From a virus, in UHGV virus genome UHGV-1806156: DNA of 13,526 nucleotides. One strand, given 5' to 3'. The translations under genes and the position numbers were made by a program. Shown piece by piece: positions 567 through 13,526 of the stretch (within the stretch, counting starts at the first letter, position 1; each line of letters opens with the position of its first letter). Under the pieces are notes generated by a model, which saw nothing but the letters and a program-made list of their open reading frames with translations, did no database searches and had not been told where the DNA came from.

Positions 567-595
567 TTGACAATTGGTTGACAATATGATAAGAT
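567..595 (+). promoter_or_regulatory. Sigma70-like promoter candidate (-35 TTGACA 567-572, 17-bp spacer, -10 TAAGAT 590-595)
   Basis: Hexamers read directly; a second TTGACA at 578-583 overlaps it. Sits upstream of the sORF at 631. Confidence 0.3.
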
Positions 596-630: not shown

Positions 631-780
631 GTGGAAATTACTGATGCAATAGCGATCATCAACCTGGCTGTACTGTGGTGCGGTGTTGCCTACATAGCCG
701 GAGTGACTGCAATCGACAATCTTGAAGAAAAAATGATAGATAAATACAAAAAGATTGTTGACAATTTGACGAATGTCTGA
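631..780 (+). CDS. Small ORF, 49 aa, GTG start, predicted single transmembrane helix (VEITDAIAIINLAVLWCGVAYIAGVTAIDNLEEKMIDKYKKIVDNLTNV)
   Basis: GGAGG at 621-625 sits 5 nt before GTG 631, stop TGA at 778-780. Hydrophobic N-terminal stretch. Below the 60-aa cutoff of the ORF track. Confidence 0.3.
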   Translation: MEITDAIAIINLAVLWCGVAYIAGVTAIDNLEEKMIDKYKKIVDNLTNV

Positions 781-786
781 TAAAAT
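758..786 (+). promoter_or_regulatory. Sigma70-like promoter candidate (-35 TTGACA 758-763, 17-bp spacer, -10 TAAAAT 781-786), likely driving the operon starting at 913
   Basis: Near-consensus hexamers with 17-bp spacing, about 125 bp upstream of ATG 913. Confidence 0.45.
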
Positions 787-912
787 ATAAAGCATAGGGT
801 AATTCTCATCATAGTGAATTTCCTTTAGTAGACTGGCGGGGGCTTGTCTTAAGTTCCCGTTTCTTTTTAATCATATATCGCACAGGTTAGTGAGCTGACA
901 GGAGATTGAATC

Positions 913-6655: not shown

Positions 6656-7114
6656 TCAGCCTCTCCCAACATTTGACCAGTATTTGATTGCACCGATCAA
6701 ATCATCATAGTGGCGCATTGCATCATTGAAGCCTTTATAGCTTGCCCATTGTGGGGAAACCTTGTTATTGCTGAATTGCCCACTAATCAGGATAGTCTCC
6801 AGAATGTCGGCATATCGCTTACCAATACGCTTTCTGACGGCCTCAGAGCTCCCACCCTTTACGATTGCATTAATCAGGGCTTTTGTGTGTCTCAGGCTCT
6901 CATAGAGCATTGCAGCGTGGGCAGATTCCATAAAGGAGCGCTTAGGCAAATCACCCCACCCCTCAGAGTGGATAGCCGCCAGTGTGGCGTAATTCAGGCC
7001 GCTATAGTGCTTTCCGTCATCCCAGCCAACCGCTACACCTTCCATCTGTGAGAGCTCTTTATGCAGCTTATCCATCATGCGCTTGTCTATGGTGCAACGG
7101 ACTTTCGGACTCAT
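6656..7114 (-). CDS. HK97 gp10-like head-tail (neck) family protein, 152 aa
   Basis: Segment GVAVGWDDGKHYSGLNYATLAAIHSEGWGDLPKRSF fits the pattern I associate with the HK97 gp10 family. GGAG RBS upstream; ATGA overlap with the preceding gene. Confidence 0.45.
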   Translation of the reverse strand: MSPKVRCTIDKRMMDKLHKELSQMEGVAVGWDDGKHYSGLNYATLAAIHSEGWGDLPKRSFMESAHAAMLYESLRHTKALINAIVKGGSSEAVRKRIGKRYADILETILISGQFSNNKVSPQWASYKGFNDAMRHYDDLIGAIKYWSNVGRG

Positions 7115-7914
7115 TTGTTGATCTCCGTGATGTCATCAAGCAACATGTTGGCCTTATCAATCATCGTTTCGTGGAATTCATTCGACACAACAGACTTATC
7201 ACCTGCGGCAATCTTTCCAGCTGCCTCTCCCTGTGCATATTCCCCGCGATGCTTAGCCCTGGTAGATTTCGTAGCAGCATTGCCAGCGTTACTACCCTCT
7301 TTAGCACTGTTAACAGCACCCTTTTGCTGTGTTTTATTCACCTTCTTACTGTTAGTGAAAACTCCGGCATTTTCGACCATCTTCACCTTGAAGGTGCGGA
7401 ATTCTTCAAAGGTGCAATCGATAGTGATGCAGTCACCGGAGGAAGAGCTACGCTTAACTTCACATTTCGTCATGATGAAGTTCTCAAGGAGTCCGGCATC
7501 TTCACTCACCAGGCTAACCAGCTGGCGCTTGTCTCTCATTTCCATAAGTGCCTGAACAGCGGCAGCAGGGCGCATAGATTCACGGGGATTATCTGGATCA
7601 GTGTTCCGGTCGATGTAGTTCTCTTTCCGGATAATGTGAGGGGAAGAGGTAATAATACCCGTAAAGCTGACAGATTTATCTTTAATGACGGCATGGTCTG
7701 ACATGGTGGTGCCATCTTCTACTGCATAGCTCGACTTTTCGACAGGGAACGAATAACGAACATCAGAGATAGAGTCAAAGAAGATAGCCACATTATCGGT
7801 ATAGTTGAAGCCATCCATTATATTTTTGTTTTGTGAATATCCCCCACACATAACAGTGAATGCGGGAGATCTCGACTCAGCTTGTTTTGCAGCTGTCAGA
7901 GCATCACTAGCCAT
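7111..7914 (-). CDS. Hypothetical protein, 267 aa (start placed at the ATG at 7914)
   Basis: Minus ORF 7111..7941 begins at a GTG; the in-frame ATG at 7914 has GGAGG 10 nt upstream. Normal amino-acid composition, unlike the Cys/Ser/Leu-rich plus-strand ORFs it overlaps. Confidence 0.55.
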   Translation of the reverse strand: MASDALTAAKQAESRSPAFTVMCGGYSQNKNIMDGFNYTDNVAIFFDSISDVRYSFPVEKSSYAVEDGTTMSDHAVIKDKSVSFTGIITSSPHIIRKENYIDRNTDPDNPRESMRPAAAVQALMEMRDKRQLVSLVSEDAGLLENFIMTKCEVKRSSSSGDCITIDCTFEEFRTFKVKMVENAGVFTNSKKVNKTQQKGAVNSAKEGSNAGNAATKSTRAKHRGEYAQGEAAGKIAAGDKSVVSNEFHETMIDKANMLLDDITEINK

Positions 7915-8042
7915 AGTAAACATGCCTCCAAATTGGTCCACTTCATGGATTTGGCTAAAGCCAAACCTGCAAAAGATGCAGGCAAAATAGAACTTATCGT
8001 TGCCCTGCGTGAATTCTGATAAAAAGACAGGGCTATCTATCG

Positions 8043-8303
8043 TTATTTTGCAAAACGATTATGCGCATTCAGGGCTTTTTTGCGGTCCTGGGCTTGTTTG
8101 CGTGCAATAAAATGTTCGAAAGTCTCGGCCCAGGTGCATTTATTATATTCACGGTATTTATGCATAGCCTGGCGGCTAACGTCATAGCAGGCGGCAAATG
8201 TGGAGATACGCAGGAATTCCGGCAGATCCTCGTCATCGATATGGATAATATCAAAAGGCACGTCGTCACGGTCGCCGTATAAAACAATTTTCATAAAAGA
8301 CAC
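8043..8303 (-). CDS. Small HTH DNA-binding protein, 86 aa
   Basis: GAGGTG RBS upstream of ATG 8303. HTH-like segment LRISTFAACYDVSRQAMHKY. Role unknown. Confidence 0.5.
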   Translation of the reverse strand: MSFMKIVLYGDRDDVPFDIIHIDDEDLPEFLRISTFAACYDVSRQAMHKYREYNKCTWAETFEHFIARKQAQDRKKALNAHNRFAK

Positions 8304-8327
8304 CTCAAAAACTTAAGACGGGGATAA

Positions 8328-8377
8328 CAAAAAAGGGAAGAGGGAAAGACCTATCCCCGATCTCTCACCTCTTCCCT
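8328..8377 (-). terminator. Hairpin terminator just downstream of the capsid gene (stem AGGGAAGAGG 8334-8343 / CCTCTTCCCT 8368-8377)
   Basis: 10-bp stem followed on the minus strand by a T run (plus-strand A 8328-8333), immediately after the capsid stop at 8384-8386. Confidence 0.45.
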
Positions 8378-8383
8378 TTGCTT

Positions 8384-9418
8384 TTATTTAGCCTTGGCAG
8401 CGGCGGCGGTGTTTTTAACACTCACTTTCACCACAACTTCAGGCATCATGTTCATGAAAGCATAAGAGGATTCAACGAAGATTTCGCGTTTGCCTCTGGA
8501 CTCTTCCATATACATGAAAGCTTCACGTGCAGCGCCGTTTGCCAGCTTCAGGTTGCGAGCGCAAGGGCCGAAAAATTGAGTATAAACGCCCACCATATCG
8601 CCTAACGCATGCGGCTGGAACTGTGGGACTAGATAAGCAGTATTCTCTGGCAGACTATCCATTTGCACCACACGCAGGGCTAAGCCCGGAATGCGGAAGG
8701 TCGGGAAGCCCGGCAGAATATCCTCAGGGAACATCAGACCTTTGTCGGTAATGTTCTGATTGCCGAACAACAGCACTTTACGGAGCAGTTCATCAGTCTG
8801 AATAGCGGTAAACAGTTCAGCACGGCAGAACAGGGTGAAACCACGCAGGGCACGAACGACACCACGCTGTTTAACCTTGCTCAGTGCAACCAGGTCCTGC
8901 AGCTGTTTAAGGATATCTTTAGCTAGATCCACTTCTGAAGTGGTTTGCTGTGCGCCCAGCAGTTCGCACACATTCAGTTCTTTACCCTTGGTGAGGATAA
9001 TTTTGTTCTCAAAGAGAGCAAGCTGGCGTGCTTCTTCGTGGGTCTGGCGTAAGCCTTCGCCAAGCTGAATAACACGACGAGCGGTTACAGACTCTAGATT
9101 CTCTTCGGAATCTTTGCCCGGAACACGGATACCCTGCCAGTCAGAAGGATAAATAGCACTTGATGCGGCAGTGAATGCCATATCACCCGTGCCCGTTTCA
9201 CGCTCATCTGCGGTAATGGTCGCCATCTGTTCACCGTAGCGCGGATACTGACCGAAAGCGGTTTGTTTCACCTGGCGAACTTTGTCATATTCAAATTTAA
9301 AGGTATTGCACAGAGCAGTAGTGTTGAAGATATCCATTGCAGAAATAATCATGTTATCCGGCGGGATATCTTTAATCAGACCACACAGATCGCGAACTTC
9401 GAATTCTTTCTTAGCCAT
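8384..9418 (-). CDS. Major capsid protein, lambda gpE family-like, 344 aa
   Basis: ATG at 9418 with AAGGAGG RBS 8 nt upstream; the track's extension to 9517 has no RBS. N-terminus FEVRDLCGLIKDIPPDN fits the L-x-G-x-[IV]-x-x-x-PP pattern seen in gpE-family capsids. Size (lambda gpE is 341 aa) and a small beta-rich gene directly upstream agree. Confidence 0.6.
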   Translation of the reverse strand: MAKKEFEVRDLCGLIKDIPPDNMIISAMDIFNTTALCNTFKFEYDKVRQVKQTAFGQYPRYGEQMATITADERETGTGDMAFTAASSAIYPSDWQGIRVPGKDSEENLESVTARRVIQLGEGLRQTHEEARQLALFENKIILTKGKELNVCELLGAQQTTSEVDLAKDILKQLQDLVALSKVKQRGVVRALRGFTLFCRAELFTAIQTDELLRKVLLFGNQNITDKGLMFPEDILPGFPTFRIPGLALRVVQMDSLPENTAYLVPQFQPHALGDMVGVYTQFFGPCARNLKLANGAAREAFMYMEESRGKREIFVESSYAFMNMMPEVVVKVSVKNTAAAAKAK

Positions 9419-9429
9419 TTTCAACCTCC

Positions 9430-9765
9430 TTATTGTGCAACACGCAAATCGCCATTGCTGGCAGCAACAACAGCGGCTAAGCCGTCTTTGTCCACATAGG
9501 CCGGATTGATGTAGCAACCTTTGTTCGCAACAACGATAAAGGAATCACCAACTTCAGCACGTTCTACAACCAGCAGCGGAGTTTTATCTGTGTGCGTTGC
9601 TTTAACGAAGGTCTCAACCTCGCCAGCCTCAGTCACCACAACAACAGTGCCAGCCGGAATCTCAGCCTTAACTTTGTTTTTAACTTCAACGTCGCGAATA
9701 CTAAATTGCTCATCTGCGGCGTATGAAATGATGTGTCCGCGTGTGCGGATAGTCATATCTCTCAT
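9430..9765 (-). CDS. Putative head decoration protein (lambda gpD-like), 111 aa
   Basis: AGGTGA RBS before ATG 9765. Small, beta-rich (Val/Thr/Ala/Gly), immediately upstream of the capsid gene as in lambda D-E. Assignment is positional and compositional. Confidence 0.4.
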   Translation of the reverse strand: MRDMTIRTRGHIISYAADEQFSIRDVEVKNKVKAEIPAGTVVVVTEAGEVETFVKATHTDKTPLLVVERAEVGDSFIVVANKGCYINPAYVDKDGLAAVVAASNGDLRVAQ

Positions 9766-10093
9766 TTGATCACCTGCGATTTAAATTAACTCCCCTCAAA
9801 GGGCTCAGGTATAACCTCTCAAACCACGACAGGCTCGGGCCGAAAAGTTATGCCGGAAATCTAAAGGGGGATTGATATAAGGAGAGGGAGATAGCCCCGC
9901 ACCGTCCAAGCGGGGGCTATTCCACATGGGGAAACCAACAACAGTTGGCTGATAGTTCACTGCATGGTTACAGGTTGCTAGAGAGCACTATCACGAAAGG
10001 CACTCCCCCGGATCAGTTCAGGCTGCGGTCACATCAGCGGGGAAATACCTTTCGGGATAGCTACCCACACAGAAAACCCGCAAAAGAAAACTG

Positions 10094-10102
10094 TGTGGAT
10101 AA
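10094..10102 (-). promoter_or_regulatory. DnaA box (TTATCCACA on the minus strand) inside an inverted repeat (CCACACAG 10065-10072 / CTGTGTGG 10091-10098)
   Basis: Exact 9-mer match to the DnaA box consensus, read directly. Confidence 0.35.
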
Positions 10103-10248
10103 CTAGCCCTGTAGGGAGAATAAGGAGAATTAATCGACCACTCTAAGATGATCATGGGTAGTGTTATTTATAAGGCGGCACCGCTACCTGGTCGCCTTTA
10201 CTTTGGAGGAAAATACGGCAAATCACCTTCGCTAAATGATTCACGGTA

Positions 10249-10268
10249 TACTGTATATTATATCAGTA
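10249..10268. promoter_or_regulatory. LexA (SOS) box-like palindrome TACTGTATATTATATCAGTA
   Basis: CTG-N10-CAG architecture with flanking TA and an AT-rich core, as in gammaproteobacterial LexA boxes. Lies in the large intergenic region between the capsid operon and the small-peptide operon. Confidence 0.45.
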
Positions 10269-10546
10269 TTTACTCACATTGTCAACACCCTGATTATATA
10301 AATTCTAATAATTAGCGTAGTAACGGTATTTTCAGACTGCTATCAATCCCATCAATACGTCATCTCATCGCATCTATCATAACTTTTTCATTCGTGATAG
10401 ATATCTTTTGATCAATATCAATGTTTTCCGGGGATTTGCCCGGCTATAGTTCGAATCAAGGAAGGGGAGCATTGATAGAGACACCCAAAGGGGTGACTGA
10501 AAGTCACCTGGCATAGCCAGTGAAAGCACCCAACCGAACAAACAAA

Positions 10547-10564
10547 TCAACTTCTCGCAAAAGG
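10547..10564 (+). promoter_or_regulatory. Conserved leader motif TCAACTTCTCGCAAAAGG, 26 nt upstream of ATG 10573
   Basis: Repeated with the same spacing upstream of ATG 11115 (11089-11107); a third variant sits in the hairpin loop at 6281-6296. Confidence 0.4.
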
Positions 10565-10572
10565 TGATAGTT

Positions 10573-10695
10573 ATGGGTATCAAGAACAGTGCCAGCGCAT
10601 GGCAAAAGGCCAGGTTTCATCACCCACACATTGTTAAGGCAATTGAGGTGGTTGGAGTTTTAGCCCTGATGTTAGCTCTGTGTGTGGAGGTGTGA
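10573..10695 (+). CDS. Small hydrophobic peptide, 40 aa (MGIKNSASAWQKARFHHPHIVKAIEVVGVLALMLALCVEV)
   Basis: AAGGTG RBS before ATG 10573; C-terminal hydrophobic helix. Below the ORF-track cutoff. Confidence 0.35.
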   Translation: MGIKNSASAWQKARFHHPHIVKAIEVVGVLALMLALCVEV

Positions 10696-10696
10696 G

Positions 10697-10777
10697 ATGG
10701 GCAAAGGAGGCAAAGCATTTTTAATAGGTCTGGCTATCCTGGATGTTCTACTAATCATGATTAAGCGGAGTTTATGA
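10697..10777 (+). CDS. Small hydrophobic peptide, 26 aa (MGKGGKAFLIGLAILDVLLIMIKRSL)
   Basis: ATG 10697 starts 1 nt after the previous stop, with AGGTG just upstream. One predicted TM helix and a basic C-terminus. Confidence 0.3.
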   Translation: MGKGGKAFLIGLAILDVLLIMIKRSL

Positions 10778-10796
10778 ACAGCATTGAGAGGAGTTT

Positions 10797-11057
10797 ATGA
10801 CGGGGGCTAAAGATATCAGGAGACTGAGGGAAGAGCTGATAGCTGAAATTAAAACTAAGGCAAAGCAAATGGAGATAGCCGCACAAATGGATGTAGCGGA
10901 ACAGATGTACAAGATGGTTGAGGAGGGAACGCCACGACAGGTTATCGCTAAAACCTTCGGTGTGGGGATCGCCACCGTGCACAGAAGGCTGAAAGCATAT
11001 GCTGACTACCACAATATCGAGAGAAAGGAGGATGGGAGATTCAGGAAAGCTAAATGA
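10797..11057 (+). CDS. Small DNA-binding protein with a Hin/resolvase-type C-terminal HTH, 86 aa, no recombinase catalytic domain
   Basis: GAGAGGAG RBS before ATG 10797. C-terminus EEGTPRQVIAKTFGVGIATVHRRLKA closely matches the Hin invertase HTH; the N-terminus is a short charged helix only. Confidence 0.55.
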   Translation: MTGAKDIRRLREELIAEIKTKAKQMEIAAQMDVAEQMYKMVEEGTPRQVIAKTFGVGIATVHRRLKAYADYHNIERKEDGRFRKAK

Positions 11058-11800: not shown

Positions 11801-13063
11801 TTAATCCGTTTTATGCCACAACCGCCCGGTTGACAGAGTAAGATAGAGTGTGTAACCCTCTTTCGTAATACCAATAAAATCAATAGTTTAGCTCAATTGG
11901 CCTTTTCTCTATTTTTGTCAAATTTAACATACCCTCAAAAACTGCAAAATCTGGCTGCAAGATTATCTGCAGCTGGATTTCTTGCGCCTCAATTTGTGGT
12001 ATCACCCTGACTAGTTTGTGCATAAATTGAACAGTTTTTAACATTTCCTCCTCACCTGGTAACCACACAAAAAGCTAAAAACGAGGCACAGATAATCTTA
12101 GAGGCCTGTTTTCTTGTTATCACTCTGGTAACGTCGTAGAAGTGATTTTGATGAAAGATGACCTACCCTATTACACCCCCATTTTTTGTTATCACAATTG
12201 CATCCTGTGCGGTGTATGGCTATGTGCTGAAAGCGGTCTTATGTGTGGGTGTCAGAAATATCCATTAGCGGTATTAATACCCGTCGGAGATTCGTCTGAG
12301 GTGCCAGGCAGGCGCTCCCCCACCTCCCTTTTTTCTTCTAACAATTCTCAAATATCACACCACTGCCCACCACGTTGCTATTATGTTAATTCTTAAGCTT
12401 TGCTGTATGTTGTGCACATTATTTATTCAGGTGGCTGTACGTAAATTCTGTGCCCACTGATCATGATTTTTAAATCAGATTTTGTAGTGCGCTTTATTAG
12501 TGTAGATAAGATCTATTATGTTAAATGCATCTCTCTCAACACTTAAAATCAATGACTTAGAGGTTAGGATGCACTAACACCCCACACAGCACATTAGACA
12601 TATAGATGTCTATACCCCACATTTTTGATTGTTTTGTAGTCATTCCCCTGATCATTTAACCAGTATAGTTTGCTCCCTGCAGACCACAAAATCGGAATTT
12701 ACATCTGATTAACATAATCTGTTAGCATGATCACCATTACCCACACAACAATAACCACATGTAAGCCTCTTCAGGCAATTTATCGGCGTGTTGGTGTGAA
12801 CAGTCTTTCATGTTCTTTATGTATTCATTGTCCTGTGTGAGGGAAGGATGGACTGCCCCAGGGGCCATACTTATGATGCCCGGTCAACATACCTGTCGAT
12901 AAAATCAAAGGGTGTTGATCTGCATATTTCCCACACATGAGAGGAAATCAAAGCAAAGAGAGAGGAGAGAGGTTTGTTAGTCAAAATAGGTCAATAAGGG
13001 TGTATTTCCACACAGACATGATGAGATAACCTGTCGGTATTTCCTACAACTCTTGCACATACC

Positions 13064-13341
13064 CCGGAAGATTTTTCCGGTGTCTCCCACCTGTGAAGAA
13101 TTTTCACACCTGTAAATCCATACAGCACGGTAAAAACTACCGCACCACCTGTGAAAATATTTTACTACTCCCTTTAGTCATACCCCTTTCAGTCATACTC
13201 AGGCACCACACCCCGGTAAATATTTCCCTACCACCCCGGAGAATTTCTCCGGTGTCCAAGCTGTATCCAATACATACCCCGGAAAATTTCTCCGCACTAC
13301 TACGGAAGATTTCTCCGGTGTACCCCGGAAGATTTCTCCGA
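13064..13341. repeat. Iteron-like array of at least 8 copies of a 17-bp quasi-palindrome (consensus about CCGGARRATTTCTCCGG)
   Basis: Copies at 13064-13080, 13236-13252 (perfect palindrome CCGGAGAATTTCTCCGG), 13279-13295, 13302-13318 and 13325-13341, the last three spaced exactly 23 bp apart. Related variants at about 13094-13108, 13150-13164 and 13214-13226. Confidence 0.6.
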
Positions 13342-13428
13342 CTAATAAATAAAGTAATAGACCACACAATAGATCCCCCCTAACCCCCAAGGGGAATGGG
13401 GAGGGATCAGAGAGTGGGGAAGGTTTTC

Positions 13429-13526
13429 TAAGGGAAAAGCTTAACCCACAAATGAAAGCCTAAAGAGCATGAGCGACTCTTCAGGCAATCTGTGTGGGGA
13501 ACATCGGAGCAGTATGTGAAGTATGA
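13429..13526. repeat. Right copy of the 98-bp direct repeat
   Basis: Matches 1-98 with one mismatch (C at 13482 vs T at 54). Confidence 0.9.

Follow-up and report, generated by a model that had tools for sequence, protein, structure and literature searches.

Does a plasmid that carries capsid and tail genes read the SOS response of its host directly? The question is raised by a candidate LexA-type SOS box, named site 1 in the following, which lies between two divergent operons of the window, by which we mean the whole stretch of 13,526 nucleotides analysed here. The window is essentially the whole of a circular iteron plasmid of ~13.5 kb with a partial virion gene set, and by its sequence this plasmid appears to be wired to SOS through site 1 together with a second box, site 2.

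The candidate box and its matrix score

Site 1 is located inside a gap of 807 bp, reaching from a minus-strand gene on the capsid side (end at 9765) to the ATG of a plus-strand peptide gene (10573), in good agreement with an earlier note that had placed a LexA-box-like palindrome at 10249-10268, in a control region of about 800 bp. The LexA-operator geometry claimed there is also confirmed, namely a CTG-N10-CAG core with an AT-rich centre and TA flanks, as the sequence of an SOS box should have; the gammaproteobacterial LexA consensus is TACTG(TA)5CAGTA (PMC6590174). Only the outer 5+5 bases (TACTG/CAGTA) form a true palindrome, and the centre reads TATAT-TATAT. The bare CTG-N10-CAG pattern is unremarkable by itself, with 6 copies in the window versus 3.3 expected.

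The site was scored with a Lewis-type heterology index (HI), which is given for 368 CTG-N10-CAG sites of E. coli K-12 in the supplement of PSOSP (PMC12527982). As the index is additive, the position weights were obtained by regression on 293 published K-12 boxes with an RMSE of 1e-5, and the recovered matrix is symmetric and blind to changes within CTG/CAG; the thresholds 13.2 and 14.8 are the values dividing the 24 experimentally tested boxes in PSOSP. By this E. coli matrix the HI of site 1 is well under the binding threshold of 13.2 and similar to that of K-12 table boxes at 8.6-9.4. Every recorded host is E. coli, the very taxon of the matrix, and the LexA-operator reading of the earlier note thus finds support in the score. 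Sites with HI <= 8.9 are expected at 0.007 per 13.5 kb under an iid base model, and in first-order Markov simulations at least one such site was seen in 7/1000 and at least two in 0/1000.

Table 1. Features of the window that bear on site 1, site 2 and the capsid operon
Feature	Position	Strand	Sequence or match	Remark
Site 1, candidate LexA-type SOS box	10249..10268		TACTGTATATTATATCAGTA	minus-strand reading TACTGATATAATATACAGTA; HI 8.89
P_cap -35 hexamer	10280..10285	-	TTGACA	12/12 match, 17-nt spacer; same in 20/20 close relatives
P_cap extended -10	10257..10265	-	TGaTATAAT	within site 1; same in 20/20 close relatives
P_cap predicted transcription start	10249..10251	-		6-8 nt past -10, at the edge of site 1; from promoter geometry
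Structured non-coding leader	9766..10248	-		about 480 nt, between P_cap and first capsid-operon gene
Capsid/tail operon	6656..9765	-	Pfam, PHROGs matches	presumed P_cap-driven; RefSeq annotation of relatives
111-aa protein	9430-9765	-
Major capsid protein	8384-9418	-	PHROG 29
86-aa protein of capsid operon	8043-8303	-
Dit-like tail protein	7111-7941	-
Neck1/tail-completion protein	6656-7114	-
Hydrophobic peptide ORFs, 40 aa and 26 aa	10573-10695; 10697-10777	+		no detectable promoter link to site 1
86-aa HTH_7/HTH_23 DNA-binding protein	10797..11057	+	PF02796, E = 3.6e-6	possible plasmid regulator
Site 2, LexA-grade box	13108..13127		ACCTGTAAATCCATACAGCA	HI 8.19; within replication origin
Iteron origin	13060..13349	+	CCCCGGAAGATTTCTCCGGTGT	six ~22-bp copies, mostly 23 bp apart
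DnaA-box-like sequence	13097-13105; reverse complement 13150-13158		ATTTTCACA	both flanking site 2
Site 3, weak borderline LexA-like box	12646..12665		CCCTGATCATTTAACCAGTA	HI 14.15; relatives 10.8-14.2

The promoter under site 1

A consensus sigma-70 scan of 9600-10900 revealed a single promoter, P_cap, which is on the minus strand and combines a perfect 12/12 match with the extended -10 TG, whereas only about 0.01 perfect 12/12 promoters are expected per window. Site 1 spans P_cap from about -18 to +2 and covers the extended -10, the -10 and the predicted start site; in other words it falls between -35 and +1, where a bound protein would occlude the promoter, and SOS boxes over the start site are reported as typical (PMC8072944). 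Judged from this geometry, site 1 occupies what would be the classical repressing position. P_cap is directed to the capsid operon, away from the small peptides.

Read on the minus strand, site 1 is TAC-TGATATAAT-ATACAGTA, in which TGATATAAT consists of the bases fixed by the overlapping P_cap. All of the 8.89 HI penalty units come from these bases, and the 11 positions that are free of the promoter constraint match the LexA consensus without exception (11/11). Given TGATATAAT, the chance of a box with HI <= 13.2 is 7e-5, and that of the observed all-consensus state is 4e-7. Since the penalty is entirely due to promoter bases and the free positions are all consensus, the box is hardly explained as a by-product of P_cap, and gives the impression of having been optimised wherever the promoter leaves bases free. 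As for affinity, HI 8.9 is only mid-range and would have to compete with a maximal promoter, and the AT-rich -10 context exaggerates the LexA likeness of the central bases.

Two paralogous strong promoters of the TTGACAAT…CTGATAAAAT type (10-11/12 plus TG) are found upstream of the Rep operon, at 567-595 (+) and 758-786 (+). The second one has an intrinsic terminator ~50 nt further on, at 835-861 (+), and might thus give rise to a short RNA or serve as an attenuator.

The leader of the capsid operon

The leader downstream of P_cap is nearly invariant within the family, and its predicted fold is far more stable than those of shuffled controls (z = -4.2), with a strong predicted hairpin at 9923-9889; among 137 predicted pairs there is 1 compensatory change, so little variation that it does not prove the structure. 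Moreover in the sister plasmid L016 (leader at 1070-1503), a canonical terminator with a T9 tract occupies the corresponding position, immediately ahead of the first gene. We infer that the leader serves as a second gate on the capsid genes, by termination/antitermination or by processing, and that with such a gate the loss of site 1, which concerns a third of the family, can be tolerated. Small ORFs in the leader were also considered as coding sequences, and they are ruled out by frame-breaking indels of 1, 2 and 10 nt in the relatives. In Rfam the whole window gave two sub-threshold chance matches only, and none in the control region; a cognate antisense or antitoxin RNA for the small peptides is likewise without an Rfam hit.

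Conservation of site 1

Twenty close relatives include the region and were used for comparison. Site 1 is intact in 13 of them and broken in the other 7 by a 1-bp deletion, which turns ACAGTATA into ACATATA and removes the G of CAG (G at 10251), so that the natural deleted allele reads …ATATACATATACC…. On either side of the gap the match to the consensus persists, and the allele reads as a recent loss. Both alleles are found on differing flanking/leader haplotypes, and therefore recombination or recurrence is involved.

In the sister clades L016/L031 and L035-L037, the promoter is present and site 1 is absent. For L016/L031 the sequence is TTGACA-17-TGaTAAAAT, then ATATAATAGC; for L035-L037 it is TTGACT-17-TATAAT within GGGATATAATATACTTATG. 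These sister plasmids have the promoter core GATATAATATAC in common with the window and lack the CTG/CAG, hence the box is an added layer rather than a consequence of the promoter; by the same comparison, the strong promoter and the long leader are ancestral. Because it is deleted in 7/20 relatives and absent from both sister clades, site 1 is dispensable, and a LexA operator here would be a clade-specific overlay. At least one intact box is nonetheless kept in all of the 20 close relatives; the one plasmid without site 2, CP134895, has site 1.

A second box in the iteron origin

Site 2 occurs at the same place in 17 of the 18 relatives that include the origin, in four versions with HI from 7.67 to 9.40, i.e. 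ACCTGTAAATCCATACAGCA (8.19), ACCTGTATAAGAATACAGTC (9.40), ACCTGTGTGTTTATACAGTC (7.87) and TACTGTGTGCTTATACAGTC (7.67). Among the versions CTGT and ATACAG are invariant and the ten other positions are variable. That 0/10 variable positions fall among the 8 core bases (CTGT, ACAG) has a hypergeometric probability of 3.6e-4. The iterons around it come in six or more different sequences, in plasmids (the window, L001 and L008-L015) with 93-95% identity elsewhere, and such variety points to a rapid diversification of Rep/iteron (incompatibility) specificity. As the version of site 2 is independent of the iteron type, it points to a host factor that is constant, and not to Rep; a role of site 2 as a Rep operator was accordingly considered and rejected, its core showing no co-variation with the iteron type.

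The surroundings of site 2 differ from those of site 1 in that no promoter of at least 9/12 is found nearby, and no promoter occlusion is to be expected there. The left half of the box is part of a locally repeated motif, CACCTGTRAA, and the flanking ATTTTCACA resembles a DnaA box by our own reading, with 8/9 matches to TTWTNCACA. A role of site 2 in replication control or in origin transcription is possible, and a LexA-grade box in an iteron origin suggests that replication may also be SOS-linked. Taken over the family, the origin box, which the earlier note had overlooked, seems to be a more robust SOS feature than site 1. Most members of the family also keep the borderline site 3, some 460 bp away from site 2.

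Predicted LexA boxes in sister plasmids

The window is a member of a superfamily of E. coli plasmids of 13-15 kb (the window, L030 and L031-L038), each with capsid, Dit-like, Neck1-like and tape-measure genes. Their capsids are of two unrelated types, PHROG 29-like and Phage_cap_E, and their tail genes are akin to those of rV5-like virulent myophages. Strong boxes are found in three divergent members of 13-15 kb, in each case within a large non-coding region: L037 has TACTGTATGTGTATACAGTA at 2139-2158 with HI 2.82, L034 has a box at 9822-9841 with HI 5.98 over the -35 of a modest 9/12 promoter, and L038 has one at 698-717 with HI 7.47. Across the ~84 kb of divergent sister plasmids, the expected number of boxes with HI <= 8.9 is about 0.04. 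A comparison of the non-coding regions of the window and L034 gave no homology, and the boxes of L034/L038 and L037 count as independent instances. In L031 there is no box with HI <= 13.2, and in L036 there is a single weak one (HI 12.12), apparently within a called gene. As far as predicted boxes can tell, the SOS wiring is recurrent in the superfamily, not universal.

Gene content, kinship and the putative helper

The close relatives (90-96% identity) are non-mobilizable E. coli plasmids of 13.2-13.7 kb. The family is present in 7 of 5,426 complete E. coli genomes, each time in plasmid form, and also in hundreds of sequencing-run assemblies, with ~450 members in the Logan assemblies. No integrase appears in the annotations or Pfam matches, and every copy is a circular plasmid that carries Rep and iterons. 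On the plus strand are encoded a lambda-O-like Rep with an HTH, several small proteins and a tape-measure protein of 715 aa. The two hydrophobic peptide ORFs meet at TGAGATG, with one base between the TGA stop and the ATG; the HTH_7 gene follows them, and a motif GAGTTTATGA is seen at two gene junctions. Downstream of the peptides, a 195-aa protein begins with a hydrophobic stretch, which is likely a signal peptide.

Genes for capsid, decoration-like, Dit, Neck1 and tape-measure proteins are present in the window, and no terminase, portal, protease, sheath or tube was detected there; with these missing the element looks satellite-like, and the view of the earlier note that it is a phage satellite fits this incomplete virion gene set. 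The nature of the helper is another matter. It had been proposed that the element fires together with a helper prophage, yet when the structural module was compared with the 5,426 complete E. coli genomes, only plasmids matched and not a single chromosomal prophage, and the nearest phage kin are described as lytic. In fact the best lead to a helper is a Dit homologue of 46% identity, which belongs to the full myovirus tail module of a 91.7-kb rV5-like contig, itself with 70% DNA identity to Vequintavirus phages; the capsid and tape-measure proteins have only 24-26% identity to rV5/FV3-like myophages. The rV5-like Vequintavirinae are grouped with the lytic E. coli phages in the BASEL paper (PMC8594841), and judged by kinship a virulent phage is more likely as helper than a prophage.

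Other comparisons gave little. The DNA of the non-coding region had no match in the phage collection, and no relatives of the capsid protein were found in IMG/VR or in GTDB representative genomes, the capsid family being confined to E. coli at an identity of at least 82%. Our literature search found no report on plasmid satellites of Vequintavirinae or on these elements.

Explanations for site 1

Considering the score, the position and the optimised free bases together, site 1 is probably a LexA operator over the core of P_cap, and a link to SOS is plausible. With LexA binding and the direction and size of its effect read from the sequence, the regulation might work as follows. In undamaged cells a LexA dimer on site 1 would block the -10 and the start site and so damp an otherwise constitutive P_cap, with repression expected to be modest and leaky as HI 8.9 faces a maximal promoter. 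When RecA is activated by DNA damage, or plausibly by the attack of a DNA-degrading virulent helper, LexA would cleave itself and P_cap would be freed. The transcript would then pass first through the structured leader, whose hairpin/terminator is the probable second gate, and afterwards through the capsid/tail operon.

An alternative is that the LexA likeness came by chance or as a by-product of the AT-rich extended -10 (TGATATAAT) and its neighbours, with LexA binding absent or irrelevant. The central five mismatches, like the whole HI penalty, are indeed due to promoter bases, the site is lost in 7 of 20 relatives and does not occur in sister clades where the promoter persists, and a CTG also precedes the -10 of the paralogous promoter at 758-786. 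We nevertheless regard this as unlikely, since even with the CTG conceded to the promoter pattern a binding-grade box has a chance of 3e-4 and perfect flanks one of 2e-6, since an independent second box is on the same plasmid, and since the broken allele, being consensus on both sides of its gap, resembles the recent loss of a selected site. It is more improbable still that TACTG-N10-CAGTA is the operator of a plasmid-encoded regulator instead of LexA, for instance of the 86-aa HTH_7 protein. The gene for this small protein is about 530 bp off in the divergent operon, and the accession of the protein differs between plasmids with intact and with broken boxes. Against such a regulator, the motif is not repeated within the control region, its sole other good copies on the plasmid (sites 2 and 3) are located elsewhere and agree with it in no more than the CTGT/ACAG core that LexA contacts, the free positions of site 1 match specifically the consensus of LexA, and site 2 stays constant while Rep/iteron specificity changes, as for a constant host factor.

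The earlier note had also likened the hydrophobic peptides to LexA-controlled membrane toxins such as TisB and DinQ, in which case the box would control a plus-strand toxin operon through a divergent promoter. The two peptides are short, have one hydrophobic helix each and are conserved in frame, which agrees with TisB/DinQ in size and helix, and the distance from box to ATG is also long for tisB of Salmonella, 236 bp (PMC8072944). The likeness does not extend to the promoter: no plus-strand sigma-70 promoter of at least 9/12 exists in 9600-10900, the best candidate near site 1 reaches 8/12 by manual search and is weaker still in the relatives, the box is centred on the -10 of the minus-strand promoter, the only one there, and the peptides start 305 bp away and match no family. 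Of all the readings weighed here, we hold this one to be the least credible.

If the LexA operator at site 1 is accepted, a wider picture can be drawn, for which our confidence is low, namely that the plasmid is an extrachromosomal satellite of virulent rV5-like phages with a LexA sensor at both the capsid promoter and the iteron origin, and that LexA cleavage, set off by DNA damage or by the helper attacking the host DNA, licenses a burst of replication together with capsid production. Were it true, a negative action of LexA on an iteron origin would be new, and so would be SOS as an infection alarm for a satellite of a lytic phage.

Comparison with known systems

Site 1 is alike to the medium-affinity boxes of K-12 in its CTG-N10-CAG, its TA flanks and its overlap with a promoter core. 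The scores of 8.89 for site 1 and 8.19 for site 2 compare with 8.61, 8.80, 9.19 and 9.38 in the K-12 table, boxes that we take to be those of ftsK, uvrD, ruvAB and recN (box 2), respectively. Site 2 differs at 3 positions from the K-12 box with 8.61, TCCTGTTAATCCATACAGCA. Unlike the K-12 boxes, site 1 is plasmid-borne, lies over a 12/12 extended -10 promoter, and precedes virion rather than repair genes; to our knowledge no natural chromosomal promoter is at the 12/12 extended -10 consensus.

Colicin plasmids such as ColE1 are also small, non-conjugative plasmids of E. coli, and have a strong promoter under LexA boxes over the -10/+1. Their promoters carry two overlapping boxes with tight cooperative repression, while the window has a single polymorphic box. 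In coliphage 186 (tum), CTXphi (PrstA) and GIL01, SOS is read through a LexA box and not through a self-cleaving repressor. LexA acts there on a lysis-lysogeny switch or an antirepressor, whereas in the window it would act on a capsid operon and a plasmid origin.

For a satellite, the nearest parallel is operon I of the SaPIs (packaging/capsid-remodelling), described as LexA-controlled in a way that does not depend on how the helper itself is regulated (Ubeda et al. 2007, as cited in PMC5052747 and PMC6092414). In both cases a satellite morphogenesis operon has a host LexA box at its promoter, although for the window the box, like the satellite status, is a prediction. However, SaPIs are islands integrated in a Gram-positive host whose LexA motif is another one; they bring along an integrase and the master repressor Stl, which is lifted by a helper protein, and they remodel helper capsids without a major capsid protein of their own. 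The iteron plasmid of the window, by contrast, encodes capsid, tape-measure and Dit proteins itself, and nothing like Stl was identified in it. The element is consequently no member of the SaPI/PICI group, and the resemblance is best taken as a functional analogy.

If LexA does gate P_cap, non-mobilizable E. coli plasmids with capsid and tail genes of their own would read SOS directly, and the principle of SaPI operon I would extend to Gram-negative, plasmid-borne elements. There would also be a simple handle, through mitomycin C, lexA alleles and the 1-bp deletion that nature provides, for the induction and study of an uncharacterised class of candidate plasmid satellites, for which a 2025 review still sees an open possibility (PMC12282955). 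Moreover the box embedded in the origin raises the question whether plasmid replication is SOS-licensed through LexA.

Repeated units

Two further observations concern the organisation of the plasmid itself. In the 39.6-kb record NZ_CP043822.1 (L013) three 13.5-kb units follow one another head to tail, one of them in partial decay; this might reflect a true multimer or concatemer, or else an artefact of assembly. The ends of the window, 13429-13526 and 1-98, form a 98-bp tandem repeat with 1 mismatch, which could stem from a genuine duplication or from an overlap that circular assembly left behind; each copy has a terminator-like hairpin on the minus strand.
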